A stretch of 43,065 bases of DNA from Candidatus Omnitrophota bacterium (GTDB taxonomy: Bacteria; Omnitrophota; Gorgyraeia; Zapsychrales; Fredricksoniimonadaceae), in NCBI GenBank assembly GCA_015233375.1, contig JADFXW010000003.1:1-43065 (forward strand), given 5' to 3'. Both the position numbers and the translations under genes were made by a program. The notes below the pieces were generated by a model. That model was not told the DNA's origin. It made no database searches and saw only the letters and a list, made by a program, of their open reading frames with translations. Positions 22,063-38,503 of this stretch are shown here, piece after piece; the first letter of the stretch is position 1; every line of letters starts with the position of its first letter.

Positions 22063-22076
22063 GGTCATCTAAAAAT

Positions 22077-23771
22077 ATGGAAAAAACACCTCTTTTTTTA
22101 GGTCAAATCCTTGTTCATCATAACATTATTAACTCAACACAGCTGGATCAAGCATTAGCTGAACAAAAAAAAACAGGTGAGTTATTAGGGCACGCATTGC
22201 TGCGTATGGGCTTTGTCAAAAAAGAACAAGCCTTTTTACCTTTATTGGCTGAAAAACTAAACGTTGAGTTAGTATTCTTAAAATCCATCGCTATTTCGCA
22301 AGAAGCTTTGAAACGTCTTTCCATCAAGGCATTAAACCATTATAAAGTTTTTCCTTTTAAATTTGAGAATGACACATTGACAGTGGCTATGTCCAAGCCT
22401 CAGGATATCGCTGTCTTGGATGACTTGAGTATGATGGCCCATGCCAGGATTAAGCCTGCCTTGGCCTCTGAGGCAGATATTATTGAAGCTATCCGTATCT
22501 ATTACGGGCTTGGGGCAGAGACCATTGAGAAAATGATGTCCGGCACTGAAATGATGGAGCAACAAACCCCGGTGATTCAGGCTATTGATGAACTTTCCTC
22601 TGAAGCTTCTATCAGCCAATTTTTAAATCAAATTTTATCTCAAGCTCATCGAGATTCAGCTACGGACATTCATATTGAGCCCTTTGGGGATGAATTACGT
22701 ATCCGTTACCGCATTGATGGAGAATTGTATGATGTTCAAGTGCCAGAAAATATTCGTTTCTTTCATGAAGCATTGATTTCTCGCATCAAGATATTGTCTA
22801 ATTTAAATATCGCTGAAAAACGCCTGCCGCAGGATGGACGTTTTAAGGTCAAGGTGTCTAATAGCGATTTGGATTTGCGTGTTTCTTTTTTACCAAGCGC
22901 TTTTGGCGAAAGCTGTGTTATCAGGCTTTTGAACACCTTTAGATTGTATGATTTTGATGATTTAGGAATTGTGGGGGATGAGCGAAAATTATTGAATATC
23001 TTAATAAATAAGCCGCATGGCATTATATTTCTGACAGGGCCTACAGGAAGCGGTAAGACAACGACGTTATATTCGTGTTTAGCACTTATCAACGCAGAAG
23101 ACACTAAAATCATCACGGTTGAGGATCCTATTGAATATCAACTCAAAGGCATCGTTCAAATCCAGGCCAATGCCAACATTGGGTTGACCTTTGCCACTGC
23201 TTTGCGTTCTATTTTACGCAATGATCCTGATGTTATCATGATAGGTGAGGTGCGAGATTTTGAAACCGCCCAGATTGCGATACAAATGTCTTTAACCGGG
23301 CATCTGGTGTTTTCTACATTACATACCAATGACGCTGTCTCAGGGATCACTCGTTTAATTGATATAGGCATTGAGCCTTATTTAATCTCAACCTCTGTGG
23401 ACTGCTTTATAGCCCAGCGATTAGTGAGATTATTATGCCCTGCGTGTAAAAGCAAAACACGCTTAACTGAAGAAATGAAAAAAGAATTTGATGTGACCAG
23501 CCAGATATCTGAAAATCATGTGATATATGAAGCCGTTGGATGTGAGGCTTGCCGGATGACAGGTTATAGCGGACGTCAGGCTATTTGTGAATTTTTAATT
23601 CTAGATGAAAAAGTTAAAGAGATGATAACACTTCGCTCAACAAGCCGGGAAATTAAACAGTATGTTGCTTCCAAAGGGATGAAGACATTAAGACAGCATG
23701 GATTAGAAAAGGTCCTTTTAGGGTTAACCAGCCCCAGTGAAGTTTTACGGGTTACTGGGGATATTGGATGA
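22077..23771 (+). CDS. gspE: Type II secretion / type IV pilus assembly ATPase (GspE/PilB family)
   Basis: N-terminal T2SSE_N/MshEN-like domain, Walker A GPTGSGKTTTLYS, Asp box, Walker B IMIGEVRD, His box, and a CxxC...CxxC zinc motif. Confidence 0.93.
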   Translation: MEKTPLFLGQILVHHNIINSTQLDQALAEQKKTGELLGHALLRMGFVKKEQAFLPLLAEKLNVELVFLKSIAISQEALKRLSIKALNHYKVFPFKFENDTLTVAMSKPQDIAVLDDLSMMAHARIKPALASEADIIEAIRIYYGLGAETIEKMMSGTEMMEQQTPVIQAIDELSSEASISQFLNQILSQAHRDSATDIHIEPFGDELRIRYRIDGELYDVQVPENIRFFHEALISRIKILSNLNIAEKRLPQDGRFKVKVSNSDLDLRVSFLPSAFGESCVIRLLNTFRLYDFDDLGIVGDERKLLNILINKPHGIIFLTGPTGSGKTTTLYSCLALINAEDTKIITVEDPIEYQLKGIVQIQANANIGLTFATALRSILRNDPDVIMIGEVRDFETAQIAIQMSLTGHLVFSTLHTNDAVSGITRLIDIGIEPYLISTSVDCFIAQRLVRLLCPACKSKTRLTEEMKKEFDVTSQISENHVIYEAVGCEACRMTGYSGRQAICEFLILDEKVKEMITLRSTSREIKQYVASKGMKTLRQHGLEKVLLGLTSPSEVLRVTGDIG

Positions 23772-23772
23772 T

Positions 23773-24990
23773 ATGCCACAATTCTCTTATAAAGCCAAGG
23801 CTGGTCCTCAAAATATAACAACTGGTTTTATTGAGGCTAATTCTGCGTCTGAAGCGGTGACAAAATTAATAAATGCAGGCAAGACACCTATTGATGTCAA
23901 ATTATCCACGATCTCAACAGGCTCCACATTAACAAAATCAAAGATTCCTAACATTAGTATCCCGCGCATGGCCTTATATCAATGGACAAGGCAATTGGCA
24001 GATTTGCAGGATGCAGGGGTCCCGTTAGCTCGATCCATGCAGTTATTGGGGCATCAGCGTCAATTTCCTGAAATGATTAAGATTATTGAGGCCATAAAGA
24101 TGGTTTTACAACAAGGTGGGAGTCTTTCAGCAGCCTTAACAGCCTATCCTCATGTTTTTCCCTCCATGTATGTTAATACAATTAAAGCAGCAGAAGCGAG
24201 CGGAAAAATGCCTTTGGTATTAAACCGATTAGCCCAGTTTCTTGAAGTGGACATGATACAAGAGTCAAAGGTCAAGTCCAGTTTACTGTATCCTGCTATC
24301 ATATTAATAGTCGGCTTTTTGACTATTTTTGTCCTTTTATCTTTTGTTTTACCACGAGTGACCTTAATGTTCGAAGATTTTGATACCCAACTTCCATTAT
24401 TAACACAAATCATCATTTCTGTGAGTCAAATATTTGCGCAGTTTTGGTGGTTAATGGCGCTTTCTGTGGCTGGGGCTATTGTTTGGATGCGTTGGTGGAT
24501 TAAAACAAATAATGGAAAAGCCCAGATGGATGCTTTCTTACTAAAAGTCCCATTATTAAAAACCTTTATTCAAAACACTCAGCTGAGCCGATTTGCGCGG
24601 ACACTGGCCATGTTATTAGAAAGTGGGGTGCCCATTGTGAATGCTCTTGAATCTGTAGTGCTTGTGGTGGATAATAAAGCGTTACAGCAAGAGGTCTATA
24701 AAATGACCGACAGGATAAAATCAGGGATGGGGCTTGCTGAGGCGGTTAAACAAAGTCCTCTTTTTCCTGAAATGACGGTTGATTTAATTGCTGTTGGTCA
24801 AGAAGCCGGGAAATTAGAAAAAGGGCTTTATAAATTAGCTGATTATAGTGAACGTCTAAGCCAGGATATGGCCCAAACTTTTACAACTATTTTAGGGCCT
24901 GCGGTTTTGGTTTTGGTTGTCGGTATAGTCGGATTTATGATTGTGGCTATGTTATTGCCTATGTTTCAGATGAATATGATCATTAAATAA
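23773..24990 (+). CDS. gspF: Type II secretion / type IV pilus platform protein (GspF/PilC family)
   Basis: Two GspF repeats and three TM helices. The ATG at 23773 lies 1 nt after the gspE stop, and the ORF-track start at 23737 overlaps gspE. Confidence 0.9.
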   Translation: MPQFSYKAKAGPQNITTGFIEANSASEAVTKLINAGKTPIDVKLSTISTGSTLTKSKIPNISIPRMALYQWTRQLADLQDAGVPLARSMQLLGHQRQFPEMIKIIEAIKMVLQQGGSLSAALTAYPHVFPSMYVNTIKAAEASGKMPLVLNRLAQFLEVDMIQESKVKSSLLYPAIILIVGFLTIFVLLSFVLPRVTLMFEDFDTQLPLLTQIIISVSQIFAQFWWLMALSVAGAIVWMRWWIKTNNGKAQMDAFLLKVPLLKTFIQNTQLSRFARTLAMLLESGVPIVNALESVVLVVDNKALQQEVYKMTDRIKSGMGLAEAVKQSPLFPEMTVDLIAVGQEAGKLEKGLYKLADYSERLSQDMAQTFTTILGPAVLVLVVGIVGFMIVAMLLPMFQMNMIIK

Positions 24991-24999
24991 GATGGTGAC

Positions 25000-25183
25000 G
25001 TTTATGGACACTTTAAAAGCTTTTTTCCGAAACGGGATATTTTTGCCGTCGTCTTCGGTTTACGACAATTGTTTTCTAAAGCATCCTTAGTATATTTAGA
25101 AAACAATTATCGTAAAGCCTTGACGACTTTTGGCAAAAAATCCCTTAATGTTTCGGAAAAAAGCTTTTAAAGTGTCCATAAAC
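25000..25183. repeat. 184-nt long palindromic element, family B, copy 2 (between gspF and gspG)
   Basis: Same length and orientation as 13200-13383, with 11 differences by hand alignment. Confidence 0.95.
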
Positions 25184-25208
25184 ACGAATCAATTGAAAGG
25201 AAATTTAT

Positions 25209-25646
25209 ATGATTAAAAATTATCGATATGGTTTTACGTTAATTGAAATAATGCTTGTTGTCATTATTATTGGCATATTGGCAGCCATGCTTGTTCCTAA
25301 TATAGCAGGGAGGAGCGACCAGGCTCGGAAAATCGCAGCCCGGACAGACATAGAGTCAAACTTGTCAACAGCGCTTGATTTATTTCATATGGATACCAGC
25401 CATTATCCAACAACAGAACAAGGGTTAAATGCCTTGTTAACAAAACCCACAGCGTCCCCAATTCCGGATCAATGGAATGGCCCTTATTTAAAGAAAAAGA
25501 AAATTTTTAAAGATCCGTGGGGACATAACTATGTGTACGTCTCTCCAGGCACGCATAATACTGAAACCTATGACCTTTCTTCCTTGGGTCCTGATGGGGT
25601 GGAAAGCAGCGATGATATTACGAATTGGGGAAATGAAGAAAAATAA
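25209..25646 (+). CDS. gspG: Major pseudopilin (GspG family)
   Basis: Prepilin leader and GFTLIEIMLVVIIIGILAAM, followed by DPWGHNYVYVSPG...YDLSSLGPDG, typical of GspG. Confidence 0.9.
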   Translation: MIKNYRYGFTLIEIMLVVIIIGILAAMLVPNIAGRSDQARKIAARTDIESNLSTALDLFHMDTSHYPTTEQGLNALLTKPTASPIPDQWNGPYLKKKKIFKDPWGHNYVYVSPGTHNTETYDLSSLGPDGVESSDDITNWGNEEK

Positions 25647-26010
25647 GACGGGTTTCATGCTTCTGGAAGCTTTGCTTTCAGTGGTGATTGTCAGCGTTTC
25701 CTTGACCTTGATAGCGGAATCTTTATTGACAAATCTAAAAACTACTGAACGTTTTCAAGAGATGACAACAGCCTTTATGGGGCTTGAAAACAGATTAGGG
25801 CTTTTATACGCAACCAATGCTTCTCCAGAAGATTTTAATCAGTATCCTAAAGATTTAGGAAAGCCATTTGGTTCAATGACAAGCCTGTCAAGGACAGAAA
25901 ACATTAATGATAATTTAAAAACAGTGGATCTTGAAATTAATTGGCCATCAGGCAAACATAAGGCAGGTTTAGACATCACCACGATGGTCTATATTCCAGA
26001 TGAAAAATAG
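25633..26010 (+). CDS. Minor pseudopilin (GspI/H-like)
   Basis: MKKNKTGFMLLEALLSVVIVSV is a prepilin-type N-terminus. The start at 25633 overlaps the gspG end. The ORF-track start at 25531 lies inside gspG. Confidence 0.65.
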   Translation: MKKNKTGFMLLEALLSVVIVSVSLTLIAESLLTNLKTTERFQEMTTAFMGLENRLGLLYATNASPEDFNQYPKDLGKPFGSMTSLSRTENINDNLKTVDLEINWPSGKHKAGLDITTMVYIPDEK

Positions 26011-26719
26011 ATTACATAGTGATGGATTTACGGTTATTGAACTTTTATTAGGTTTGACTATTGGAGCCATTATTGGTTTATGTGTATCTAATATGTTTTG
26101 GCTGGGGCTTAAACTTAATGATAAGATGCAGTATGTTCACAAAGATTACGTGTCTGAACTAAGGGTTGATGCGACCCTTTCCCGTGATTTAGAAAATGCT
26201 GTTTTTATTGATTTATCCAACAGCTACCCTGATGCTAAAATTTTTGAAGGGAACCTTACAGAATTTTCATTTTTAACGCAAACATCAACAGGATTAAAGC
26301 GTGTGCGGTATTTTACAGGATCACCAGAAGGTGTCAAAGGCTTAACATCCATGATAGGGCGGGTTGTTAATCCTTCAAACATTGATTCCAAGGGCAGACT
26401 AGATCAGGAGTCCTTGTTCCGTCAGGAAAGCAGCTTGGGGGATTGGCTTACGGGCAGCAATCAAGATACCCGCTTCCAAATTATTGCAGGGGGCTTAAAA
26501 AAACAAAGTTTCCATTGCCAGTATGCTCCTTTTGTGAAAAATCTAGATAAGAGTTCTTCCAAAGAAATAAATTATAAAGATGTGTGGGATGATAAAAAAC
26601 TACCCCTTAGCGTATCATGTGGATTTGTCTTATATAACCTTAAAAATCCGTCAGCAAGCCTGATATTTAAACGAAATTTTTTCTTAGCACCGGTAAATGC
26701 CTATTATAATGAACAATAA
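26000..26719 (+). CDS. Minor pseudopilin (GspJ-like)
   Basis: DGFTVIELLLGLTIGAIIG is a prepilin-type N-terminus. Size and position fit GspJ. Confidence 0.6.
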   Translation: MKNRLHSDGFTVIELLLGLTIGAIIGLCVSNMFWLGLKLNDKMQYVHKDYVSELRVDATLSRDLENAVFIDLSNSYPDAKIFEGNLTEFSFLTQTSTGLKRVRYFTGSPEGVKGLTSMIGRVVNPSNIDSKGRLDQESLFRQESSLGDWLTGSNQDTRFQIIAGGLKKQSFHCQYAPFVKNLDKSSSKEINYKDVWDDKKLPLSVSCGFVLYNLKNPSASLIFKRNFFLAPVNAYYNEQ

Positions 26720-27731
26720 AGGGGTTGTTTTACTTATGATATTATGGGTGTTATGCGTTTTAGCCTTGATTGCTTGGGGTTTAGGACGCCGATCATCCCA
26801 GGATATTAATTTATTAACACACTACCGGGGAAAATTGCGCAGTTATGCGGCAGCTCGGGCTGGAATCAATAAAGCGCTGGATCTTTTGCGTCAATCCAAA
26901 TCGCAGAAAGACACCTTATATACATCCGGCATTAATATAGAAATGACACAAAATCCTAAAACCTTATTTTCTCATATTGATATTGGAAAGAATGCCTATA
27001 CCTCTATTGAATGGAAGGCTCGGCATTTTAACACCACTGAACAAGATCCGATTGAATATGGGCTCAGGGATGAATCAGGCCGTATCAATATCAACGCGCT
27101 TGGCATCGCTAATTATCCTATCCTCAGCGCGCTTTTAGAACTCAAAGGGGTGACGAAAGCCCAAGCAGATCATTTGGCCCAAGCGATAATTAATTATACA
27201 GGGGGCACCAATCAAACTGGCAGTAGATCATCATTTTTGGATTTAAATGAGTCTCGTTTAAAACAAAAAAATAAGCCTTATGAAAACATCCTTGAATTGC
27301 TCCAAGTCGAAGGCATGACCCAAGAAATTTTCAATAAAATCAAGGATGATGTGACTGTTTTTGGTAACCCTCTTAATGGGGTGTGGATAAACGTCTTCAC
27401 GGCTAATAATGATGTCATTGCAGCAGTGGCGCAAGCGGCTGTTAGGCTTAACCCTTCCATTAGTCCAGAAACAATTAAAACCAAGGCCTATGCTCTTAGG
27501 GATGGGGCTGATGGACGTTCTTTTACTTTAGATGATGGGGCGGTTTCTATCAATACCATTAACAGTCCTGACTGGCCGCCTGTTTTTCAAGAAGGCCAGT
27601 CCAATTATTATAATGCAAGGGTTGTCGGTGTTGATCAAGACTCCCAAGTGCGTACTGTTTTGGAAGCGGTCATCCACTATACTCCAGGATCTAAGAGCGA
27701 GATCCTTTCATGGAAAGAGGCCGGTGAATGA
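26697..27731 (+). CDS. gspK: Minor pseudopilin GspK-like
   Basis: Hydrophobic N-terminus GVVLLMILWVLCVLALIA, GLRDESGRININAL (GspK DE..K.N.N motif), and a helix-hairpin-helix-like ILELLQVEGMTQEIFNKI. Confidence 0.7.
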   Translation: MPIIMNNKGVVLLMILWVLCVLALIAWGLGRRSSQDINLLTHYRGKLRSYAAARAGINKALDLLRQSKSQKDTLYTSGINIEMTQNPKTLFSHIDIGKNAYTSIEWKARHFNTTEQDPIEYGLRDESGRININALGIANYPILSALLELKGVTKAQADHLAQAIINYTGGTNQTGSRSSFLDLNESRLKQKNKPYENILELLQVEGMTQEIFNKIKDDVTVFGNPLNGVWINVFTANNDVIAAVAQAAVRLNPSISPETIKTKAYALRDGADGRSFTLDDGAVSINTINSPDWPPVFQEGQSNYYNARVVGVDQDSQVRTVLEAVIHYTPGSKSEILSWKEAGE

Positions 27732-29167
27732 AAACAAGCACTGTTTTTCATATCAATGAAGGAAAAATAAAATTTCTTCAGATGGCCAATGGCCATAAAA
27801 AACTTGTTACAGCGCTTGATGTGCTTGACATTGCCCAACAAGGTGATGAGGCCATCATTCAGACCTTGGTTTCTTTTCTTAAACAGAAGAAAATAAATTT
27901 CAACAATGGCCAGGTTTCGATTGTGGTTCCGCGTTCCTGGGTCATTTTAAGATTGCTTCATTTGCCATCCCACCAGGAAGATGAAATTCGTTCGATGATT
28001 GATTTGCAAATTGGAGAGTATATTCCTTACGCCAGAGAGGATGTTGAGCTTGATTTTCAGATACTTTCTAAAACACCCGACGGTTACTCTAAAGTAGCCG
28101 TGGTCATTATTCCGCAAGAAATTGCCATGCGTTATTGGACTATTTTTAATCAGGCTAAAATCCCCGTCCATCGCATGACTATTTCCTCAGTGGGTTTATG
28201 GTTATGGTACCAACAACAGCCTGGCCTTTCTGATAAACCAGCAGCGGTTTTTGATTTAGATATGAATAGCAGCGAAATATGCCTGTGTTGTAAAACTCAT
28301 ATGATGGCATCAAGAGAAATTCCCATAGGTTTTGATCAGATACAAAAAGATGGTTATGAGGAAATTTTAAAACAATGGGAATTAACTCAAAACACTATCA
28401 GTGATAAGGTGTTTGAAAAAAACACTTCTGTTTATCTGATGATGACAACGGATAAAAACAGTGGCTTAAGCAATGAGTTGAAAAGGTTAAATGAGGGATT
28501 ATTAGTCAAAGAGATATATTTAACAAAAGAATTGACCTTAAAGAAAGGCTTGCAATGGCCTCAAGCTATCATAGAAGAAGGGATATCATTAGCGGCATTA
28601 GCCGGGATTGCTTGTTGTTCAATGAATATACCTGTTGATTTAGTCCCTAAATCTATTAAGGAATCAAAAAATAAACGTTTATTGAAACGTCAGTTAATTG
28701 TTTTAAGTATTTGGTTTACAACAGGTTTAATTTCTTTAGGCTTTGCATTAGGAATGGGGTATTTTAAGAAGAATATGGAATTAGCAAGACTCGAGGAAGC
28801 CCTCGCCGAAACCAAACATGAATCAGCGTCTGTTAAGAAACAATTACAAAAAATTCATGATATTGAGGATATCATTAAAAAAAGATTGATTTTCTCAAAT
28901 TTGGTTGAAAAAATAACGCCTTTGCTTGCGCCTGAAATGTATTTGGTCAATATTTCCATCAGTGAGAAGAATACGTTGTCCTTCCAAGGGTTGACTCAAA
29001 AATCAACCGCCATTAATCAATTTCAGAGTGATTTGGTAAACACTCATGATTTTTCTGATGTAAAGCTTGAATATGTTAATAAAAGAATGACTCAACAAGG
29101 TGAAATTGATTATTTTAAGATGACGTGCATTATTAATTCCTCAGGTGATAAAAATGAAAAAACTTAA
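27728..29167 (+). CDS. PilM-like actin-fold domain fused to a TM helix and PilN-like domain (GspL-equivalent)
   Basis: The N-terminal ~300 aa are PilM-like. Then VDLVPKSIKE (PilN INLLP-like), a TM helix LIVLSIWFTTGLISLGFALGMGY and a coiled coil. Confidence 0.6.
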   Translation: MKTSTVFHINEGKIKFLQMANGHKKLVTALDVLDIAQQGDEAIIQTLVSFLKQKKINFNNGQVSIVVPRSWVILRLLHLPSHQEDEIRSMIDLQIGEYIPYAREDVELDFQILSKTPDGYSKVAVVIIPQEIAMRYWTIFNQAKIPVHRMTISSVGLWLWYQQQPGLSDKPAAVFDLDMNSSEICLCCKTHMMASREIPIGFDQIQKDGYEEILKQWELTQNTISDKVFEKNTSVYLMMTTDKNSGLSNELKRLNEGLLVKEIYLTKELTLKKGLQWPQAIIEEGISLAALAGIACCSMNIPVDLVPKSIKESKNKRLLKRQLIVLSIWFTTGLISLGFALGMGYFKKNMELARLEEALAETKHESASVKKQLQKIHDIEDIIKKRLIFSNLVEKITPLLAPEMYLVNISISEKNTLSFQGLTQKSTAINQFQSDLVNTHDFSDVKLEYVNKRMTQQGEIDYFKMTCIINSSGDKNEKT

Positions 29168-29684
29168 AAATAGTGAAACAGTCATATTAATTATTGCAGT
29201 CGTGTTATTTATTTGTTTTTTGGTCATGCAGTTTATTATTAAACCTATCCGTGAAGGAGATGTGGATATCAATGACAGGTTACGGGTTTCTAAAACGAGA
29301 TTAATCAAAGAACAGCAGACAGCGGCTCAAAAATCTTTGGTTGAATCAAGATATGAAAATTTAGTGAATCTGGTTGGGGTAGATGATTCCGAAGAGGCTC
29401 AAATGACCGTGATTGTTTCAAAGATTGAGAATTCTGCCCATGAAAGCAATGTGCATATCGCTAACATCAGGCCCTTGCCTTCTGTAAAAGAAAAAGAGGC
29501 GGTGTTCTTAAAGGTTGAGTTAGAATTAGATGGCCAATGGCTGGATATTGTTCACTTTTTAAATCTTCTTCAAGCCCAGCCCAATTTTTATTTTATCAAT
29601 GATTTGAATTTAGAAAAAAGTGCGGAAGGATCCAGTGTGTTACGCGGCGATATTGTGGTTTCGAGGATGTGTTTGGTTCATTGA
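29145..29684 (+). CDS. PilO/GspM-like secretion-system component
   Basis: Single N-terminal TM helix, a coiled coil, and a C-terminal alpha/beta domain. Last gene of the operon. Assignment rests on architecture and position only. Confidence 0.5.
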   Translation: MIKMKKLKNSETVILIIAVVLFICFLVMQFIIKPIREGDVDINDRLRVSKTRLIKEQQTAAQKSLVESRYENLVNLVGVDDSEEAQMTVIVSKIENSAHESNVHIANIRPLPSVKEKEAVFLKVELELDGQWLDIVHFLNLLQAQPNFYFINDLNLEKSAEGSSVLRGDIVVSRMCLVH

Positions 29685-29715
29685 TATTATATCTAATTTA
29701 GAAAGCGTTTTCTTA

Positions 29716-29741
29716 AAACAAGCCAAATAGGCTTGTTTTTG
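29716..29741 (+). terminator. Rho-independent terminator closing the secretion operon
   Basis: AACAAGCC-AAATA-GGCTTGTT followed by TTT, 32 nt after the stop at 29684. Confidence 0.6.
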
Positions 29742-29796: not shown

Positions 29797-32700
29797 ATGT
29801 GCCATATAAGAAGAAAGACAAGCCGTAAGATTATTGCACAGATTATTTTTTTTACTTTTATTTATATTTCTGTTATTCCTCCTGTTTTAGCCCAATCTGT
29901 TGACCCAATACCTTATATGCCTCAAGCAGGCCTCATGGTGCGCTTAAGCCAGAGGTTTACACCTGCCTACTTAACAGGGATAGTCATTCATCCTGAGAAT
30001 GCCCTGAAATTTGATTTTATTATTTATAAAGGAGATAAGAAGCTTAGTGACTCCCAAAAACGCATAGAATATACAAAATTAGCTAAATACTTTTTAGCCT
30101 CTTTAGCCATTCCAGATGAAGACCAGTGGGTCAACCTGTCTCCTTATGAAAAAAACAGGCTCATCCAGGATGATTTTGGCAAGACTGAAATGGGCCGTGA
30201 TTTATTAACACAGGATTATATGCTCAAACAAATAACAGCTTCTTTGATATATCCAGAAGATAATTTAGGCAAGAAATTCTGGGGGAAGATTTATACAGAG
30301 GCCCAGAGGCGATATGGGACCAGTGATGTGCCGGTCGATACCTTTAATAAGGTTTGGATACTCCCAGACAGCGCCGTAATTTTTGAAAAGGGTAATGCAG
30401 CGTATATTTTAAAGAATCATTTAAAGGTGATGTTGGAAGAAGACTATTTATCCTTGCAAAAACACTCTGCCATTTCCCTCTCTTTAAACAACAAAACACA
30501 CAGCATCGCCTCTAAAATTATCAAAGAGATAGTCCTTCCCGCCTTACAGCGCGAAGTCAACGAAGGCAAGAATTTCGCGCCATTAAGGCAAGTTTACAGC
30601 GGCATGTTGTTAGCGGCCTGGTATAAACGAGCTCTTAAGGATTCATTATTAGGGAAGATATACGCGAATAGGGCCAAGGTCAAAGGTATAGACCAGGACC
30701 CAAGAATGAATGAACGGATTTATCGTCAATACTTAAAGGCTTATAAAAAAGGTGTTTTTAATTTTATTAAGGAAGATGTTGATAGATATACACATGAAAT
30801 GATTCCAAGAAAATATTTTTCTGGCGGGACAATGGGTTTTGGTGCAACGCCAGCGACCTTTGCGCAGGTTGTCGAACGCACATCTAGTCCTACCAAAATT
30901 ACCCAAGCTAATGCGTTAATACCTGAATCAGATTTGGTATCAGCAGCTATGCAAGCGCCATCAGAAAAAATACCAACAAAAGAAAATCATGCTATGCAAT
31001 CATCACTACGGAATATTTTAAATGAAATGAAAGTAGAGGGTTCTAGACAAGAAGAATATGCATTAAATCAGGCTTTTCAACTTATTGAACTTTCAAAACT
31101 TAAGCCGCAAAAAATCGAAGATAAAGATCTTAACATATTAATTGAAGGATTATCAGGAAAGCATGGACTAGCGTCTTTTTTGTTAGGTAGGATTTCTATG
31201 TCAGGTGTTTTATTACATTTTTTAAAAGATTTTGTTCCTGCTTATCTAAGTTATAAACAAGCAACAGATATTGTTCAGGCTCTGAAGGCTTTCTGGGGAA
31301 TGGGTACAAAAGGGGATGCTCAATTGAAAGAACTGATAGGAACACCATTAGATCATAGTGAACAGGTCAATGAGGCTGAAAAGATGGTTGAGTCAGTTTA
31401 TCAAAGGTCGCCAGTTGCTCAGAAAGTGCGTTTAGGTGGCAATCGTCAAGGTGGAAGCAAGAAAATACCTTTTAGAGGTCCTGTGTGGATTACAGCAGGA
31501 AATTTTTCTTATAAGGTATGGGAAGAAAATGGGTTGGTGAAATTCCAAAGGTATGACGCAAAAGATGGGAAAGAACAAGGAGGAGAATACGTGGTTCCCC
31601 CTGGGAACGCATGGAATGTTGGTAGAGTTCGAGAATATAATAATTATGTAATGAAAGATGAAGCCTTATCTAGCCAGCATTTTTCTTTTAAGGTGATTAA
31701 TGGAGAAATATTAATAAATGATTTAAAGTCTTTCAATGGTACTGTGGTTCAATGGGATGCTGCGATGACTCATCTGACGGAGAAGGACACTAACTTTATT
31801 GATAGAGGGATGATTGCGAATGCTTCAGTCGCTGAGAGAAAGTCTGTCATTGAAGAAATTAATCAGAGTGGGAATTTGCGAGATGCTGAAATAGCCCGAA
31901 GGCTTAAAGAATTAGGGTATCATCCTTCGGGTGAGTTTGATTTTGATGAAAATGGCCATGGACACCCTATTATAATGGGATATCACCAGTTTCGTAATGT
32001 GGAAGACACCATGCTTGTTGACCCCGAAATAGATAAAATATTTGATGAAGTCTATAAGGAATTTTTTCAAAAATTAAGAGAGAAGTTTCAAGGCGTTGAT
32101 TTGGATCATTTGCTAGGAGGAGACAAACATGAAGCTATAGTAGCTATATATCAAATTTTATATCAGAATTTTGAATATGAAATTCTTTCACAACATAGAC
32201 AGGGAAGAGTGGTTTTAATTGGTGACACCTATAGTAGAGGGGCAGACGGAAAGGGTGTCTGCCGTCACATGGGGCTTTTTATTGCTGCTATCTTACGTCG
32301 ATTAATTGAGGCTAACGTATTGCACGGGAGTGTCTATTTGGTTGGAAGAAATGGTCATGCTTGGGCTGTTTATCAAACTAGCGGTAAAACAGAACAAACG
32401 AGAGGGAGATACGTCTTTGATCTGGCGCAAAAAAAGTTTTTGCAACCAGGCCAAGTGGGAAAATATAAGGGAAATGGGGAACAGATGTATAATTATGATG
32501 ATGCTTTTGATGAATTGAAACAACAAGAAGCATCAAATCAAGCGGCAGGAGAAATCAGACCTTCGCCAGAGATAGATTTAAGTATACTACATACTTCACC
32601 ACATGGCGCTCGAGCTAAGCACAACGATCAGTATTTAGAAAGAGAAAATGATATTGTTCTTCGCAATACGACGGTGTTGACGGAATTTATGAAGATGCAT

Positions 32701-34167
32701 CATAGTACAAAATCCCCAGGGCCTATGAAAGCATTTCTTCAAGTTGAAGATGGATTAATTTCAAATATTAATATCTTCCCAAGTACAGGAGCTATTCCAA
32801 TTACAATTGATAGTAAAGGGAAAATTTCTTTAAACGAAGATGAGGATAGAATAACTAATGAATATTCTCTTATCAAAAGGGCATGTGACAGGTTTAGTAT
32901 GCTTTATAAAGGAAATTCGCAAGAACCGATAGAGTATAAAGGTCCTTTGACTTTGATCTTGGCTAAAAATATTGAATTGACAATTGTGGAAGAAGCGCCT
33001 GGTCAATTTTTTATTAAGGGCAATTTAGGTTTGATATCTGAGGTGTCTATCCCCTTATTAGATAAGGCTACTAACCCCGAAGAAAATCCAGTTCAGATAG
33101 GAAGAAACGCTGCAGACAATTTACAGATCGGGTCGAATAAGATGCTGGCGTCGACAGACCAGGGAATTAAGAAAATTTCTTCAAGTCATCTTACTATCTC
33201 ACGAGTTGGTAGAACAATATATTTCAGGGATGGAAATGGCAACGATAAACCTTCGACCAATGGGACCATGATCATTGACGCGGATGCCGTGGCCCCTGAA
33301 GCAATCATTGAGAAAAATATGAAGACCCTCAATTCTGATGCAATTAATGATGCAATTAATGATGCAATTAATAAGGCGAGGGCTGAACATAGAAGAGTTT
33401 CTCGCAGAATTGAGATTCCTGTTAATGTCGATAAATATGGACAGATAATAACTTTTGGAAATCCTGACGACACTACTAGGGAATTATATTCGTTTACCCT
33501 ATCTGTAAGAGCAGCGTGGGATAGGCAGGATAATCCATTTCAGATATCGGAATTTGAATATTGGCCCGACGAAGGCGTATTGCGTGATGCGGTAGGCTTA
33601 CAAGATGCTCAAGTGTTACAAAATATAAAAAAGATGCTTGATGATACAATCGATAGAATAAATAAGGAATTCATTAGTCAAGAACTTGAAGATGATGAAA
33701 CGAGGTTAATTTTAGCATTTCGTTTATTTGCACAAGGAAAGGAGGAGTCGGCAAAAAAAATGCTAAAAACTACAGATCCACCTCAACTTACTCGTAGGTT
33801 TGCTCAGGATTTCCTGCAATGTCAAAATTTTGATACAACTTACAAAGCGTTCAAAAAAAAGAATTGGGTTAAGGGTGATAGATTCGCATTGTTGGTGCAC
33901 AATCTTCAAACTACAGAATTAAGGGGTATCGTAAAGGGAATTGCTGACAGTGCTATGGTGGGACAAGTTAATAATCATCAATACGGTGGTATTGATTTTA
34001 ATTCTGCTAATTTGGCCATGATAATTAAACGGGATGCTCATGGGGGCAGCTTCCCGTTGTCAAAGCAAGAAATGGCTATTTTAAATAAAATTGAAGGCTT
34101 GGAACCAAAAGTCCTTTCCATCATACCTGCTATCGAATCATCTCTTGTTTCAGATCTTGTGAGTTAA
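29797..34167 (+). CDS. P2: exported giant protein with conserved head, FHA - transglutaminase-like - FHA payload and conserved tail
   Basis: RBS GGGAGGGAG. Signal peptide ends VLAQ. Head is shared with P1/P3/P4. FHA1 has VGRVRE..SSQH..SFNGT. Cys-His-Asp core is GVCRHMG / GHAWAV / VFDLA. FHA2 has IGRNA..SSSH..STNGT. Tail is YGGIDFNSANL... Confidence 0.85.
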   Translation: MCHIRRKTSRKIIAQIIFFTFIYISVIPPVLAQSVDPIPYMPQAGLMVRLSQRFTPAYLTGIVIHPENALKFDFIIYKGDKKLSDSQKRIEYTKLAKYFLASLAIPDEDQWVNLSPYEKNRLIQDDFGKTEMGRDLLTQDYMLKQITASLIYPEDNLGKKFWGKIYTEAQRRYGTSDVPVDTFNKVWILPDSAVIFEKGNAAYILKNHLKVMLEEDYLSLQKHSAISLSLNNKTHSIASKIIKEIVLPALQREVNEGKNFAPLRQVYSGMLLAAWYKRALKDSLLGKIYANRAKVKGIDQDPRMNERIYRQYLKAYKKGVFNFIKEDVDRYTHEMIPRKYFSGGTMGFGATPATFAQVVERTSSPTKITQANALIPESDLVSAAMQAPSEKIPTKENHAMQSSLRNILNEMKVEGSRQEEYALNQAFQLIELSKLKPQKIEDKDLNILIEGLSGKHGLASFLLGRISMSGVLLHFLKDFVPAYLSYKQATDIVQALKAFWGMGTKGDAQLKELIGTPLDHSEQVNEAEKMVESVYQRSPVAQKVRLGGNRQGGSKKIPFRGPVWITAGNFSYKVWEENGLVKFQRYDAKDGKEQGGEYVVPPGNAWNVGRVREYNNYVMKDEALSSQHFSFKVINGEILINDLKSFNGTVVQWDAAMTHLTEKDTNFIDRGMIANASVAERKSVIEEINQSGNLRDAEIARRLKELGYHPSGEFDFDENGHGHPIIMGYHQFRNVEDTMLVDPEIDKIFDEVYKEFFQKLREKFQGVDLDHLLGGDKHEAIVAIYQILYQNFEYEILSQHRQGRVVLIGDTYSRGADGKGVCRHMGLFIAAILRRLIEANVLHGSVYLVGRNGHAWAVYQTSGKTEQTRGRYVFDLAQKKFLQPGQVGKYKGNGEQMYNYDDAFDELKQQEASNQAAGEIRPSPEIDLSILHTSPHGARAKHNDQYLERENDIVLRNTTVLTEFMKMHHSTKSPGPMKAFLQVEDGLISNINIFPSTGAIPITIDSKGKISLNEDEDRITNEYSLIKRACDRFSMLYKGNSQEPIEYKGPLTLILAKNIELTIVEEAPGQFFIKGNLGLISEVSIPLLDKATNPEENPVQIGRNAADNLQIGSNKMLASTDQGIKKISSSHLTISRVGRTIYFRDGNGNDKPSTNGTMIIDADAVAPEAIIEKNMKTLNSDAINDAINDAINKARAEHRRVSRRIEIPVNVDKYGQIITFGNPDDTTRELYSFTLSVRAAWDRQDNPFQISEFEYWPDEGVLRDAVGLQDAQVLQNIKKMLDDTIDRINKEFISQELEDDETRLILAFRLFAQGKEESAKKMLKTTDPPQLTRRFAQDFLQCQNFDTTYKAFKKKNWVKGDRFALLVHNLQTTELRGIVKGIADSAMVGQVNNHQYGGIDFNSANLAMIIKRDAHGGSFPLSKQEMAILNKIEGLEPKVLSIIPAIESSLVSDLVS
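33337..33372 (+). repeat. Perfect 12-nt tandem repeat x3 (GATGCAATTAAT) inside P2
   Basis: Read directly from the sequence. Encodes DAIN-DAIN-DAIN. Confidence 0.95.
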
Positions 34168-35918: not shown

Positions 35919-36022
35919 AGGTTGATTATTATATCTAAAATAATTTGTTTTTTAAGCTAATTTTAATGAAAACTTCAAGATATGTATGTTATACTTTAGA
36001 AGCAATCATTTCAAAAGGATAC

Positions 36023-38503
36023 ATGATAAATTTATCTAAAAATCATCCTTTTTTTATCTGCATTACCGTATTCATTTTTTTATCTTTGAATATTAATCTA
36101 CCTTATCCAGCTTTTGCTCAAGACGTCTATTATCTTCCTGAACCAGGGACCATGGTCCATGTAAGCCAGGCCTTTGATTCACCTGTCTTAAAAGGTATTA
36201 AAGTTTATCCTGATAACCCTTTGCGGTTTGATTTTATTATGGATGTAGGGTCGGACTTTATGTCCGACCGAAATCATGGGCCGACACAAGGTCGGCCTCT
36301 GCGAATGGAAGCAGGCAAGCTCATCAAATATTTTCTCGCAAGCCTTACTGTTCCTGAAAAAGACCTTTGGGTTAATTTAAGTCCCTATGAGAAAAACCGC
36401 ATTATTCCTCATAGCTTTGGATTAACTCAAATGGGCCGTGACTTGTTAGGGGAAGATTATGTATTAAAACAAATCACAGCTTCGCTAATTTATCCAGAAG
36501 ATGCCATAGGTAAAAATTTTTGGAAAAGAATATATGAACAAGCAGTTATAAAATATGGAACAACGAATATTCCAGTCAACACTTTTAATAAGGTATGGAT
36601 AGTGCCAGAGAAGGCGATTGTGTATGAAAACACTAAGGCCGGGACAGCGTATGTGATGGAAAGCAAATTAAAGGTGATGCTGGAGCAGGATTATTTGGCA
36701 TTAGAGAAAACCCAGCGGCCTACCAGGGGACATGTTCAAAGCAGAACATCAAAGAACGTGTCCCCAAGCACGTTGCCAAGCGAAGTAGCATTGAATATGA
36801 AAGCGCCCCAAGGAAATCCCCGTACGCCAAACAAAGACATCAACGCTCTTGGTTCTAAAATTATCCGTGAAATCGTCATTCCACAACTAACAAAAGAGGT
36901 GAATGATAATAAAAATTTCGCCAAATTACGACAGGTGTACAATTCACTCATATTAGCTACATGGTATAAACAAAAAATTAAAGACAGTCTATTAGAAGCG
37001 GTATATGCAGATAAAAATAAAGTTGCTGGAATAGGTTATGAGAAGGGGACAGGGTCCTTGAAAGCCAGGGCCCTGTCTTCTTCAACACCTAACGATATCG
37101 AATTTATCTATCAGCGCTACCTTCAAGCCTTCAAAAAAGGCGTTTATAACTATATTAAGGAAACTCAAGACCCTGTCACAAGGCAAAATATTCCAAGAAA
37201 ATATTTCTCAGGCGGGATTAAATGGGAGATTACTCGAGCCATGGTTGTAACTCATCAATTAGATAAAAATATGAAAAGCCTGCCTAACAGGCTATATGAG
37301 GTTGAGGCTAATTTGATCATGTCTGAAGATGAGGCTATTGAAAGGGCAGGTATTGCGGTACGCAGAATTCTTCTACATGATTCAAGTCTAAGACAAACGC
37401 CGCTTGAGATACAAAATTTAAGAAGATTCTTAATAGATTGTGAAGAAGAATTGACTGATTTGCATTATCAGGAGCAGGCGGTGTTTTATTATCATAAATT
37501 GGATGAAGCGTTTCATGTGTTAATGGAGGCGCGTCCATTTGCTATTTCTTCTAAAGAGGGTAAAGCTGATCTTGAAGGATCTATGCTTGCTATTTCGCAA
37601 CTAGAGAAGTGCTTATTGATAGTTCAGGACCTGTACGAAAAATTCAAGAATGAAAATTTTCTGGATGCCAGATCCTATGAATCGTGTTTGATGTTCTTTA
37701 ATCTTATCTTAGATGGGCTTAAATCCAGCTTAGAAATTGCCCGTAGAAAGCTGTTTTCAGAAACAACAAACGTGAAAGAAGTTATTGAGGCATTTCATAA
37801 ACTTCATTCCTATGTGCGTATTATAGACAATTCACCTCAACAACCATTGATTATAAAAGGTGACTCAATGGCCTTAATATGCGCTCTTCACAATTTAGCT
37901 TATAATGCCATTTCTGCACTAAATGGAATAAAAAAGAAAGCAGAAATTGTCTTAACAGTTTCTGTGGATAGTGGAAATTTGGTTTTATCGGTTTCTGATA
38001 ACGGTCCAGGTTTTGATAATCCGCCGGTTCCTGGTCGTCCGCCAGCTCTTGATTGGGACCCTGTTACAAATAGACAACGGATATTCAATTTAAATGTTAC
38101 CTCAGGAGCAATCAGTAAAAGCACGGGCTTGGGAACTACCGAAGTGTATTATGTGGTCAAAGACCATTTTGGAGAAATAACGGCAAACAATAGACTAGAT
38201 GATCAAAATTCAATCATTGGAGCTAACTTCACTATCAGAATACCTTTATCTATTGAGGCCGTAGACACAGCTATTATAAAGAATTCCAAAGTTATTCCGC
38301 AGCAAAAGATAGATGTAAAATATGGAGGTATTGATTTAACTAATTCAAAAGTTCTAGAGACAAAAAAAGACAATAAAGGGATTAATTTTAAGTTTGATCC
38401 AATATTATTTCAGGAATGGAAGAACGCAAGAGGCTTTTCTGCGGCAGTCACAAGCGTTAAACTCATCAAAAGCGTTCAAGAATTTGTGCAAAATCCTACT
38501 TGA
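36023..38503 (+). CDS. P3: exported protein with conserved head, histidine-kinase-like (HATPase_c) payload and conserved tail
   Basis: ATG at 36023 preceded by AAGGA. Signal peptide ends AFAQ. The head closely resembles P4. Payload has an H-box-like LHDSSLRQTPL, N box LHNLAYNAISA, G1 DNGPGF and G2 TGLGT. Tail is YGGIDLTNSKVL... Confidence 0.85.
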   Translation: MINLSKNHPFFICITVFIFLSLNINLPYPAFAQDVYYLPEPGTMVHVSQAFDSPVLKGIKVYPDNPLRFDFIMDVGSDFMSDRNHGPTQGRPLRMEAGKLIKYFLASLTVPEKDLWVNLSPYEKNRIIPHSFGLTQMGRDLLGEDYVLKQITASLIYPEDAIGKNFWKRIYEQAVIKYGTTNIPVNTFNKVWIVPEKAIVYENTKAGTAYVMESKLKVMLEQDYLALEKTQRPTRGHVQSRTSKNVSPSTLPSEVALNMKAPQGNPRTPNKDINALGSKIIREIVIPQLTKEVNDNKNFAKLRQVYNSLILATWYKQKIKDSLLEAVYADKNKVAGIGYEKGTGSLKARALSSSTPNDIEFIYQRYLQAFKKGVYNYIKETQDPVTRQNIPRKYFSGGIKWEITRAMVVTHQLDKNMKSLPNRLYEVEANLIMSEDEAIERAGIAVRRILLHDSSLRQTPLEIQNLRRFLIDCEEELTDLHYQEQAVFYYHKLDEAFHVLMEARPFAISSKEGKADLEGSMLAISQLEKCLLIVQDLYEKFKNENFLDARSYESCLMFFNLILDGLKSSLEIARRKLFSETTNVKEVIEAFHKLHSYVRIIDNSPQQPLIIKGDSMALICALHNLAYNAISALNGIKKKAEIVLTVSVDSGNLVLSVSDNGPGFDNPPVPGRPPALDWDPVTNRQRIFNLNVTSGAISKSTGLGTTEVYYVVKDHFGEITANNRLDDQNSIIGANFTIRIPLSIEAVDTAIIKNSKVIPQQKIDVKYGGIDLTNSKVLETKKDNKGINFKFDPILFQEWKNARGFSAAVTSVKLIKSVQEFVQNPT
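36247..36302. repeat. Two adjacent perfect hairpins inside the P3 head (GGTCGGAC-TTTAT-GTCCGACC, plus a family D copy GGCCGAC-ACAAG-GTCGGCC), in frame
   Basis: Read directly from the sequence. Translated as VGSDFMSDRNHGPTQGRPL. The site is a length-variable loop in the four-way protein alignment. Confidence 0.75.
36726..36765. repeat. Hairpin repeat family E inside the P3 head, in frame
   Basis: GGGGACATGT...ACGTGTCCCC. The homologous site in P4 is 42288-42321. Confidence 0.6.

Follow-up and report, generated by a model that had tools for sequence, protein, structure and literature searches.

A putatively exported FHA and transglutaminase-like protein is one member of a large modular family in Omnitrophota

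Introduction

[quoted passage not shown] Among exported enzymes with a transglutaminase-like (TG-like) fold, the bacterial cysteine protease LapG works in the periplasm of its producer and cleaves its substrate at a di-alanine motif (PMC10990149).

Omnitrophota are described in passages of one study as ultra-small, host-dependent nanobacteria (PMC10066038). Passages of a preprint cite a 2022 study for one experimentally supported predator in the phylum and report that secretion loci adjoin giant multi-domain genes (10.1101/2023.11.21.568195). In the relevant part of a 2026 preprint, long Omnitrophota proteins are described that have signal peptides or transmembrane helices alongside Pfam content of signalling and metabolic kinds (10.64898/2026.06.07.730766). 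Here we analyse an Omnitrophota protein that a sequence-only reading had taken for a Sec-exported protein with two FHA domains around a TG-like core.

Gene context

The target gene lies in a window of 43,065 nt, the whole stretch of DNA analysed, and has an AGGGAGG-type ribosome-binding site at its 5′ side. It is one of four genes of the same family in the window, which together occupy 34% of it.

4115..8629, plus strand: paralogue with the same signal peptide and N-domain and a C-terminal 'GGIK' variant; the cargo includes a GT5 glycogen/starch-synthase-like domain
19732..29684, plus strand: type II secretion (T2SS) operon 5′ of the target, encoding GspC-like, D, E, F, G, pseudopilins, K, L-like and M
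29715..29739, plus strand: terminator-like hairpin between gspM and the target gene, 10-bp stem and T-run
29797..34167, plus strand: target, a single open reading frame of 1,456 aa, stop included
35945..38503, plus strand: paralogue with signal peptide, N-domain, HATPase_c cargo and C-domain variant
39800..43015, minus strand: paralogue with signal peptide, N-domain and C-domain; the cargo has no Pfam match

The target is the first gene after a complete, co-directional gspC–M operon. Sec-dependent export is the usual first step for T2SS substrates, and giant Omnitrophota genes have been reported beside T2SS-like loci in passages of 10.1101/2023.11.21.568195. The protein could be a T2SS substrate released to the medium by this operon to act extracellularly, but we consider this distinctly unlikely. 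The hairpin parts the operon from the target gene, and it is not obvious what an FHA protein with a thiol enzyme would act on in free solution. The operon is not a family-wide neighbour, with a T2SS-like gene found at only 3 of 80 family loci (flanks of up to 6 kb on each side), and adjacency is expected by chance because there are four family genes in 43 kb. We treat the operon as genomic context only.

A carrier family with variable cargo

The protein is organized as follows.

29797..29892, plus strand: Sec-type signal peptide, aa 1–32, predicted cleavage VLA32/Q33
29902..30834, plus strand: conserved N-domain, aa ~36–346 (~310 aa), DPxPxMPxPGxMV ... PRKYFSGG; carrier module
30943..30999, plus strand: linker; x-x-A-M junction motifs SAAM (383–386) and NHAM (398–401)
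31045..31407, plus strand: Module A, aa ~417–537, helical, with two homologues
31387..31770, plus strand: FHA1, an extended FHA domain, aa 531–658; GR609–610, S625-x-x-H628, N647-G-T; ends in DAAM (654–657)
31933..32544, plus strand: TG-like/papain-like module, aa 713–916; C822, H824, H854, D875
33085..33282, plus strand: FHA2, a divergent FHA-like module, aa ~1097–1162; GR1102–1103, S1128-x-x-H1131, N1155-G-T
33946..33957, plus strand: DSAM junction motif, aa 1384–1387, 8 residues before the C-domain
33982..34158, plus strand: conserved C-domain, aa 1396–1454 (~60 aa), GGIDFNxANL..IKRD..G..PL..Q......I.GL.P.........

The two ends of the protein are conserved across the family. At least 3,772 proteins match the target, all on the N-domain only, and over this part Omnitrophota proteins are 60–81% identical to it (E = 1.6e-189 against the family HMM). 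The C-domain ('GGIDxN') ends 115 of 120 homologues and matches its family HMM with E = 4e-26. As far as sampled, all members are from Omnitrophota, with at least 578 family loci in metagenome-assembled genomes and many per genome; two homologues of more than 4,000 aa (P0135 and P0153) bear the same N-domain. The N-domain had no Pfam match at E ≤ 10 and no PDB profile match, the C-domain had no Pfam or NCBIfam match, and neither domain matched any Pfam, NCBIfam or PDB entry. The AF2 model of the N-domain has a pLDDT of 65 and gave no Foldseek match.

The common layout is signal peptide, N-domain, variable cargo and C-domain. The target is thus one member of a huge Omnitrophota family, apparently undescribed, in which conserved ends bracket variable cargo, and we hold this anatomy and family membership to be very likely correct. 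What could have passed for a one-off combination of FHA and TG-like domains is instead one cargo cassette among those of a modular family. The N- and C-domains may serve as a common carrier that sorts, anchors or further translocates the protein.

In the target, the cargo runs from a helical module through the extended FHA, the TG-like module and the divergent FHA to a helical stretch; 22 aa within Module A resemble the beginning of the N-domain. Elsewhere in the family the cargo comprises CheY, HTH, DnaJ, HATPase_c, SAM methyltransferase, 2-hydroxyacid (NAD) dehydrogenase, PP-binding, PP2C-like and cNMP-binding domains, besides the GT5 domain encoded in the same window. These cargoes are overwhelmingly cytoplasmic in type and often depend on ATP, NAD or SAM.

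The variable regions are punctuated by the motif [DN]-x-A-M, which is present in 117 of 120 homologues. Its DAAM form occurs 110 times against 1.0 expected, a 105-fold enrichment, and is found where modules join and immediately ahead of the C-domain. The DSAM of the target falls in a low-confidence linker of the AF2 model.

The FHA and transglutaminase-like modules

Over the whole protein, Pfam FHA (PF00498) scores 37.3 bits (E = 3.7e-9) in two stretches, and the two proposed FHA modules fared differently. FHA1 is significant by itself (26.9 bits against a cut-off of 20.7) and matches the PDB FHA chain 1uht_A (E = 7e-4). It belongs to an extended type with about 45 homologues that conserve the signature residues, with which FHA domains bind phosphothreonine; all FHA1-type rows in the alignment with the target have the G, S, H and T of GR / SxxH / NGT. 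The domain lies where it had been placed (about 31475–31760) but is larger than had been proposed. FHA2 is the second stretch of the whole-protein match and has all three motifs, but alone it scores 16.1 bits (E = 0.015), below the cut-off. It aligns to the FHA1-family HMM solely at these motifs, and its region of the AF2 model is unreliable (pLDDT < 50). From its sequence, FHA2 is probably a true FHA domain.

The proposed Cys-His-Asp core, at about 32240–32430, is exactly where it was expected (C822 at nt 32260, H854 at nt 32356, D875 at nt 32419), and the triad is conserved in about 40 homologues. The module has 39 homologous domains. When the target is aligned with 27 homologous segments, C822, H824 and D875 are the same in every row and H854 is at least 90% conserved. 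These residues fall within a conserved signature GVCRHxG...GHGWAVY...vlDvAQ, in which the Cys is followed two residues later by an additional invariant His. Among 117 further relatives, all keep G-x-C-x-[HQ].

The fold assignment rests on remote similarity. The target matches Pfam Transglut_core below the cut-off (E = 0.0024; 18.6 bits against 23). Among the 28 TG members, 8 match DUF553 and 6 match Transglut_core at sub-threshold to threshold levels, and an intermediate sequence, P0204, passes the DUF553 cut-off and links the module to that family, which by sequence appears to be the nearest in Pfam. The fold searches that had been proposed were uninformative: Foldseek with a 797-aa model matched neither a transglutaminase nor a papain structure, and PDB profile searches gave no match. 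In the AF2 model (pLDDT ~85–94 over the module) the Cys is at a helix N-terminus and the His and Asp are on successive strands. As modelled, the module has a papain/transglutaminase core topology.

The pairing with FHA recurs. An FHA domain is also present in 13 of 39 TG-bearing proteins, which puts the FHA-TG(-FHA) cassette in at least 13 proteins besides the target. In four of those 13 the FHA lies 4–14 residues upstream of the TG module and in five ~50–100 residues downstream; one is FHA-TG-FHA, as in the target. The FHA, TG and signal-peptide features are more than a chance pattern.

Export and site of action

The N-terminus has a positive n-region (HIRRKTSRK), a hydrophobic core of ~16 aa and a c-region PPVLA32/Q33 with V at −3 and A at −1, as judged from the sequence and a Kyte–Doolittle profile, which showed no other convincing transmembrane segment in the whole protein. 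This bears out the earlier proposal of a cleavable signal peptide ending VLAQ. The n/h/c layout ending A-x-A/Q is kept across the family; the hydrophobic core is present in 106 of 120 homologues, and 99 of 120 have no further transmembrane-like segment. Export is well supported by sequence, and the target probably passes the inner membrane through Sec, after which the signal peptide would be removed.

It could be argued that this N-terminus is no export signal in vivo, or that it targets an internal compartment, such that the FHA-TG protein serves the Ser/Thr phospho-signalling of its producer in a cytoplasm-like space. Every identifiable type of family cargo is cytoplasmic in other bacteria, the stand-alone TG homologues (mostly from Patescibacteria) have a hydrophobic N-terminus in 0 of 117 cases and lack signal peptides, and the same tension is discussed for long Omnitrophota proteins in part of a 2026 preprint (10.64898/2026.06.07.730766). 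We find this reading very doubtful. Hundreds of paralogues share the canonical layout, in which a positive n-region leads to a short h-region and then to small residues at −3 and −1 ahead of Q. With ~13–16 aa, the h-region is not long enough to form a stable anchor, and the positive-inside rule puts the mature chain outside. Internal compartments in Omnitrophota find no support in this analysis.

Export through Sec could also end in the producer's own periplasm or at its surface, where the protein would act as a LapG-like processing protease and its FHA domains would bind partners in the envelope, whether or not these are phosphorylated. LapG, which acts in the periplasm of its producer (PMC10990149), is a precedent: export of a TG-like Cys protease need not mean that its target is foreign. 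Beside its Sec signal, the target shows no identifiable retention signal, and with DAAM enriched at module junctions and ahead of the C-domain, sibling family proteins might even be cut at their [DN]-x-A-M (often D-A-A-M) junctions. We nevertheless consider a periplasmic or surface role unlikely. The LapG family PF06035 was unmatched at E ≤ 0.1 in the target and 27 homologues (Pfam), and TG modules occur in a small minority of members whereas the motif occurs in 117 of 120. The stand-alone TG relatives look cytoplasmic, phosphothreonine signalling has no established basis in the periplasm, and ATP-, NAD- and SAM-dependent cargo on the same carrier would be left unexplained.

We favour a model in which the FHA domains would bring the enzyme to proteins phosphorylated on Thr, and its Cys-His-Asp centre would then cleave, deamidate or cross-link them. 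For the whole chain, from export to FHA-guided enzyme action, we put the chances at about even. The most likely site of action would be host or prey cytoplasm, because the family's cargo is of cytoplasmic type and published work describes Omnitrophota as ultra-small and host-dependent, with one experimentally supported predator. The argument that FHA is a phosphothreonine reader of cytoplasmic type, such that its export with an enzyme would point to action in another cell, is reasonable. It is strengthened because the same signal peptide and N-domain bear other cytoplasm-type, cofactor-dependent cargoes and because the stand-alone TG relatives have no signal peptide. Delivery itself did not emerge from the analysis; this is the weakest step of the model, and we propose action inside another cell only tentatively. 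The family architecture is consistent with such delivery, short of proof.

Comparison with known systems

The target resembles LapG and other bacterial transglutaminase-like cysteine proteinases (BTLCP, PF06035) as an exported TG-like Cys-His-Asp enzyme, and the D-A-A-M junctions that abound in the Omnitrophota family recall the di-alanine at which LapG cuts (PMC10990149). It differs in having no PF06035 match, in that its module sits flanked by FHA domains inside a 1,456-aa multi-domain chain, and in that no LapD- or LapA-type partners were seen for it. With DUF553 (PF04473) and Transglut_core (PF01841), both annotated as transglutaminase-like, the module shares the Cys at a helix N-terminus and the His and Asp on successive strands, as well as sub-threshold to threshold HMM matches in 14 of 28 TG members and one intermediate. 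The target itself falls below the cut-off, however, and the module forms its own family with its own signature.

Like polymorphic toxins, the Omnitrophota family combines one conserved delivery module with diverse payloads and has many paralogues per genome. In contrast to them, it has both ends conserved around a variable middle, uses a Sec signal peptide, and carries payloads that are mostly signalling or metabolic domains in place of recognisable toxins, with no immunity gene evident. T9SS cargo likewise has diverse passengers, preceded by a Sec signal at the N-terminus and followed by a short, conserved domain at the C-terminus, but the target matched no T9SS C-terminal domain model and the Omnitrophota family has a large conserved N-domain in addition.

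Within the phylum, the giant proteins ('Archaeovorins') are also multi-module, with signalling Pfam domains, signal peptides or transmembrane helices, and secretion genes nearby, according to passages of 10.1101/2023.11.21.568195 and 10.64898/2026.06.07.730766, whereas the target is mid-sized. The N-domain, the C-domain and the [DN]xAM motif are not described in the searched passages of these two preprints.

Finally, the FHA fold is shared with secretion machines, namely the cytoplasmic domain of YscD/SctD in type III secretion and Fha in type VI secretion, and the target weakly matches the Yop-YscD_cpl model (30.6 bits, cut-off 33.2). Those domains belong to the cytoplasmic face of a machine of the producer itself, whereas in the target the FHA comes after a signal peptide predicted to be cleaved and has an enzyme as its partner.

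A single ORF for a probably exported protein with FHA and transglutaminase-like modules

The target is a single unbroken ORF (29797..34167, + strand) of 1456 aa, with a ribosome-binding site of the AGGGAGG type a few bases 5' of its ATG. Its N-terminus, read from the sequence as M-C-H-I-RRKTSRK / IIAQIIFFTFIYISVI / PPVLA|QS, comprises a positive n-region, a hydrophobic core of about 16 residues, and V at -3 and A at -1 ahead of Q33. This is the pattern of a Sec substrate cleaved by SPase I, with its positive n-region, h-region of 10-16 aa and small residues at -3/-1. The same layout recurs in the homologues, in agreement with the sequence-only reading, which had described a signal peptide ending VLAQ. 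We infer that the target is exported by Sec and cleaved at A32|Q33. There is no second TM-like segment, the sole other hydrophobic window (around aa 458) containing Arg and Ser, and a re-entrant topology placing the cargo in the cytoplasm is therefore ruled out. The alternatives that the N-terminus does not export, or that the destination is an internal compartment, seem quite improbable beside this signal-peptide layout.

The whole target matches the Pfam FHA model (PF00498) in two stretches, with E=3.7e-9 and 37.3 bits (gathering threshold 20.7). As separate pieces, FHA1 (aa 531-658) scores 26.9 bits, above this cut-off, and FHA2 (aa ~1097-1162) scores 16.1 bits (E=0.015), below it. A solved FHA domain, PDB chain 1uht_A, matches aa 591-656 (E=7e-4). 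The FHA signature residues G-R, S-x-x-H and N-G-(T/S), which contact the phosphothreonine peptide, are found in FHA1 at GR609-610, S625/H628 and N647-G-T, and in FHA2 at GR1102-1103, S1128/H1131 and N1155-G-T. All of the motifs that had been quoted for FHA1, FHA2 and the enzymatic core between them were recovered at their positions. The earlier observation of two FHA domains is thus confirmed, for FHA1 by the Pfam threshold and the 1uht_A match, and at the level of its motifs for FHA2, which alone is sub-threshold and whose region has a pLDDT <50 in an AF2 model. Among the rows of the extended FHA type that align to the target, the G of GR, the S and H of SxxH and the T of NGT are invariant, which makes retained phosphopeptide binding the natural reading.

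The module between the FHA domains (the TG module, aa 713-916) falls below the cut-off of the Pfam Transglut_core model (PF01841), which the middle piece of the target matches at aa 776-857 with E=0.0024 and 18.6 bits (cut-off 23). In an alignment of the target with homologous segments, C822, H824 and D875 never vary and conservation of H854 reaches at least 90%, within a signature GVCRHxG ... GHGWAVY ... vlDvAQ. When 28 members were scanned with Pfam, DUF553 was found in 8, Transglut_core in 6 and the EDR1/CTR1/ARMC3 peptidase-like model in 1, the DUF553 and Transglut_core matches (14/28) all being sub-threshold. DUF553 (PF04473) is annotated by Pfam as a 'transglutaminase-like domain'. Used as a profile query, the module retrieved 190 proteins, mostly stand-alone proteins of ~250 aa, one of them carrying the name 'transglutaminase domain-containing protein'; the named ones come mostly from Patescibacteria, another ultra-small, host-dependent group. 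One of these proteins, P0204, has an E-value of 7.9e-39 with the TG profile and scores 24.4 bits against DUF553, above the gathering score of 20.5. On these profile scores the module of the target, itself below threshold, is joined to DUF553 transitively.

The predicted structure agrees, in the order of its elements, with the Cys-His-Asp triad that the sequence-only reading had proposed. An AF2 model of the 797-aa payload was built with the TG alignment; the query is multi-domain and the model mostly of low confidence, with pLDDT ~85-94 over aa 679-919. C822 lies at the N-terminus of helix 822-838, H854 starts strand 854-861 and D875 ends strand 871-875 (pLDDT 81-94 around these elements), which in the model is the element order of the papain/transglutaminase core. 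Foldseek searches of PDB and BFVD with the whole, mostly low-confidence model gave no significant match, and PDB profile searches with the TG profiles gave only noise; support for membership of the transglutaminase-like group comes from sequence and topology rather than from a structure match. Membership of the LapG/BTLCP family (PF06035) was rejected, since neither the target piece (searched to E<=10) nor any of the 28 members (to E<=0.1) matched it.

A hydrophobic N-terminus is found in 0/117 of the stand-alone relatives, which indicates that the TG module is natively cytoplasmic and that Omnitrophota have put it behind a signal peptide, as they have the other cargo types. These ~250-aa proteins (P0203-P0319) lack a signal peptide, and almost none is annotated by Pfam.

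FHA and the TG module recur as a cassette

With only the payload (aa 403-1385) as query, a word-indexed search for homologues gave no match at E<=1e-3, and an exhaustive HMMER search was required to find module-level relatives. Among 1.84 billion representatives, 82 proteins matched, and only in three segments: aa ~417-537 (two proteins), aa ~527-658, the extended FHA type (about 45), and aa ~709-920, the TG segment (39). The same search found no match to aa 930-1385. When family HMMs were mapped onto the 82 proteins, 13/39 TG-bearing proteins also carried FHA, a fraction that is only indicative because retrieval favoured proteins with either module and many sequences are contig fragments. In four homologues (P0154, P0159, P0163 and P0199) FHA ends 4-14 residues before the TG module, and in five (P0131, P0152, P0162, P0175 and P0185) FHA follows it by ~50-100 residues; P0159 has the target-like order FHA-TG-FHA. 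This tight spacing argues for a functional unit in which FHA would serve as the targeting module of the Cys-His-Asp enzyme. Many of the FHA- or TG-bearing proteins also have the conserved N- and C-domains described below, including chains of 4041 and 6562 aa.

A 22-residue stretch in the target cargo (…SGVLLHFLKDFVPAYL…; aa ~463-484, nt ~31183-31248) resembles the start of the N-domain (PGVMVxLSPEFTPAYLKG) of many homologues and may be a remnant of past recombination among family genes.

A carrier family with conserved ends and variable cargo

Searching 5.8 billion proteins with the target gave 3772 matches. Among the best 120, identity ranges from 46 to 81% (>=53% except in one) over 21-30% of the target (one 44%), the matched part being its first ~350 residues, and where named they belong to Candidatus Omnitrophica. 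Outside this part, the Pfam domains of these 120 are very diverse, among them response-regulator receivers (several), XRE HTH, SAM methyltransferases, DnaJ, HATPase_c, cNMP-binding, PP-binding, 2-hydroxyacid dehydrogenase, LMW phosphatase, PP2C-like, peptidase M3 and LysM. The proteins share a plan: a signal peptide ending A-x-A|Q, an N-domain running from 'DPMPFMPxPGxMV' to 'PRKYFSGG', a variable middle and a conserved tail, the C-domain ('GGID[FLM]NxANLxLQIKRDGxGVPLP..QQD...I.GL.P.I..I.P'). Among the best 120 matches the tail is present at the end of 115, an N-terminal hydrophobic core in 106, and 99 have no further TM-like segment. The target belongs to this family, with matches to the N-domain HMM (E=1.6e-189) and the C-domain HMM (E=4e-26) and with the junction motif [DN]xAM at aa 398, 654 and 1384.

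When one genome per species was scanned, family loci numbered at least 578, several genomes having many. The best 80 of these all lie in Omnitrophota MAGs, some default-labelled 'Planctomycetales' and one Elulimicrobium. In 57 complete ORFs the stretch between N-domain and C-domain measures 163-1623 aa (median 663). Several MAGs are tagged 'uncultured Planctomycetales' despite matches that agree with the Omnitrophota set. One N-domain locus (L022, DYOU01000045.1) lies in a MAG that bears the label Candidatus Elulimicrobium, a member of the Patescibacteria group according to NCBI taxonomy; mis-binning, mislabelling or transfer could account for this.

Three paralogues share the window with the target, each with a signal peptide, an N-domain and a C-domain variant. 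Their N-domains are 46-48% identical to that of the target, and with the target these genes cover 34% of the window.

Family paralogues in the window
4115-8629, + strand: cargo GT5 glycogen-synthase-like
35945-38503, + strand: cargo HATPase_c
39800-43015, - strand: cargo without Pfam match

The first 402 aa of the target match nothing in Pfam even at E<=10, the N-domain profile found nothing in PDB, and sequence and profile searches of PDB with the whole protein returned the FHA match only. The C-terminal 288 aa gave only an insignificant PSD4 match in Pfam and NCBIfam; no T9SS C-terminal domain model matched there, and we rejected the target as a Type IX secretion cargo. An AF2 model of the N-domain from 21 sequences is mediocre (pLDDT 65, pTM 0.58), with long helices and two beta-hairpins; in the model of aa 1-368 one hairpin, aa 186-213, is conserved. 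Foldseek gave no significant match to the N-domain model, the top rows being the alpha-pore-forming toxins ClyA, NheA, SmhA and MakB (probability <=0.12, TM ~0.13), which we take only as a lead towards a possible role of the N-domain in membrane insertion or translocation.

No prior description of this family was found in the openly searchable literature, and the terms looked for are absent from Seymour et al. 2023. The passages searched in two studies of long Omnitrophota proteins (10.1101/2023.11.21.568195 and 10.64898/2026.06.07.730766) do not mention the N-domain, the C-domain or the DAAM motif. According to the latter, a 2026 preprint, 94% of 916 long proteins in its Omnitrophota catalogue have a signal peptide or TM helices together with signalling and metabolic Pfam modules.

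A short motif punctuates the variable regions

The variable regions of the family are punctuated by a short linear motif, [DN]-x-A-M-[T/A]. In 105 kaa, DAAM occurs 110 times against 1.0 expected (105-fold enrichment), and [DN]xAM is present in 117/120 proteins. Its favoured places are the region that follows the N-domain (at a median of 52 aa), the borders of modules and the residues immediately ahead of the C-domain. Per 1000 aa it occurs 4.3 times in variable parts, compared with 0.46 times in N-domains and 0.11 times in those ORFs of the window that are outside the family.

Junction motifs in the target
aa 383-386 and 398-401 (nt 30943-30999), + strand: SAAM and NHAM
aa 654-657 (nt 31756-31767), + strand: DAAM, directly after FHA1
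aa 1384-1387 (nt 33946-33957), + strand: DSAM, 8 residues before GGIDFN

The motif is written with all four Ala codons and both Asp codons, which gives no support to a repeat at the DNA level alone, though GCG is over-used at the motif Ala (21-23/38, about 55-60%, against ~23% of background Ala codons). The motif may be a processing site or a recombination scar. In one alternative, which we hold to be unlikely, the target would work as LapG does, within the envelope of the producer, where it might cut at DAAM junctions. LapG, an exported TGase-like protease (PMC10990149), provides the precedent.

Genomic surroundings

A complete, co-directional T2SS operon lies 5' of the target, encoding a GspC-like protein, secretin, GspE, GspF, GspG, pseudopilins, GspK, a PilM/PilN-type GspL and GspM. 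A terminator-like hairpin with a 10-bp stem and a T-run (29715-29739) separates gspM from the target, which makes it probable that operon and target are transcribed separately. In other genomes, a T2SS-like gene was found near the family locus (flanks <=6 kb on each side) at 3/80 loci, which rules out T2SS linkage as a family-wide rule within such flanks. Passages of one study report T2SS-like loci upstream of Omnitrophota giant genes (10.1101/2023.11.21.568195). Plain secretion through this T2SS into the medium is unlikely in our view: the target adjoins the operon, but the hairpin intervenes and conserved linkage of the family with a T2SS was not found within these flanks. The 43 kb hold four family genes, and at that density the target may adjoin the operon by coincidence.

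The mechanical ORF 3' of gspG overlaps it by 116 nt (ORFs 25209-25646 and 25531-26010), and probably begins, in truth, at a later start codon; Pfam gives nothing convincing for it, whereas the ORF that follows matches the prepilin N-methylation motif weakly, below the cut-off.

Further 5', at 8784-19628, are genes for lipid A and LPS core: KdtA, LpxK, a fused lipid A acyltransferase/ELM1-like protein, GT4/GT9 fusions and four heptosyltransferase-like proteins. On gene content these mark the organism as a diderm with LPS, which bears on any two-membrane export model. Between the family paralogues sit a PIN-domain gene (34465-34953, + strand) and a tyrosine-recombinase gene of the phage integrase family (38595-39773, + strand), and at a family locus in another genome (L043) a close PIN homologue (E=2.6e-54) lies just upstream of the family gene. 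These neighbours hint at mobility or a toxin-antitoxin association.

A proposed route for the target

The steps that we propose follow in order of decreasing confidence. The target would cross via Sec, its signal peptide being cut at A32|Q33. FHA would then steer the thiol enzyme onto Thr-phosphorylated proteins, resulting in proteolysis, deamidation or cross-linking, all of which are known chemistries of the transglutaminase-like/papain-like group. The N- and C-domains could act as shared sorting, anchoring or translocation modules. Finally, the site of action might be the cytoplasm of another cell, as the sequence-only reading had suggested; this is favoured by the cytoplasmic, cofactor-dependent nature of the family cargo, by the cytoplasmic character of the stand-alone TG relatives and by the host-dependent or predatory habit of the phylum. 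Published work describes a host-dependent lifestyle in Omnitrophota (PMC10066038) and a predatory one (Kizina et al. 2022, as cited in 10.1101/2023.11.21.568195).

In the most far-reaching reading, which we hold to be rather unlikely, the N-domain and the GGIDxN C-domain would constitute an undescribed Omnitrophota route that exports chains of cytoplasm-type enzymes and signalling modules into a host or prey cell, the chains would be processed like polyproteins at [DN]-x-A-M to free individual modules, and the FHA–Cys-His-Asp cassette would be an effector seeking Thr-phosphorylated proteins of the victim. The anatomy of the target is solid, and the conserved catalytic and phospho-binding residues, the recurring cassette and the carrier architecture are seen directly in the sequences; delivery into another cell, the key functional claim, is put forward as a possibility.

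The Omnitrophota, ultra-small bacteria that are widespread but uncultured, seem to live at the expense of other microbes. The target points to a very abundant toolkit, a single exported carrier that bears hundreds of different payloads such as are usually found inside cells. Should these be delivered to another cell, the family would amount to a newly designed arsenal of effectors, and the FHA–thiol-enzyme cassette an example of an effector against phosphothreonine-marked proteins. If they stay with the producer, its extracytoplasmic space would hold working ATP-, NAD- and SAM-dependent domains, which would be equally unexpected. The conservation of the N-domain, the C-domain and the DAAM motif makes both ideas directly testable.

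Relation to known systems

The FHA domain and the transglutaminase-like module are of known kinds. New relative to the literature searched are their pairing as a recurring cassette, the position of this cassette behind a Sec signal and, above all, the family of signal peptide, N-domain, cargo and C-domain, punctuated by [DN]xAM junctions. Neither conserved end is represented by a Pfam or NCBIfam model, and no solved structure matches the N-domain. LapG is a precedent for an exported TGase-like protease, although the target has no PF06035 match. Polymorphic effector systems and T9SS cargo follow a similar logic, but the family differs from both in its layout and in the type of its payloads.
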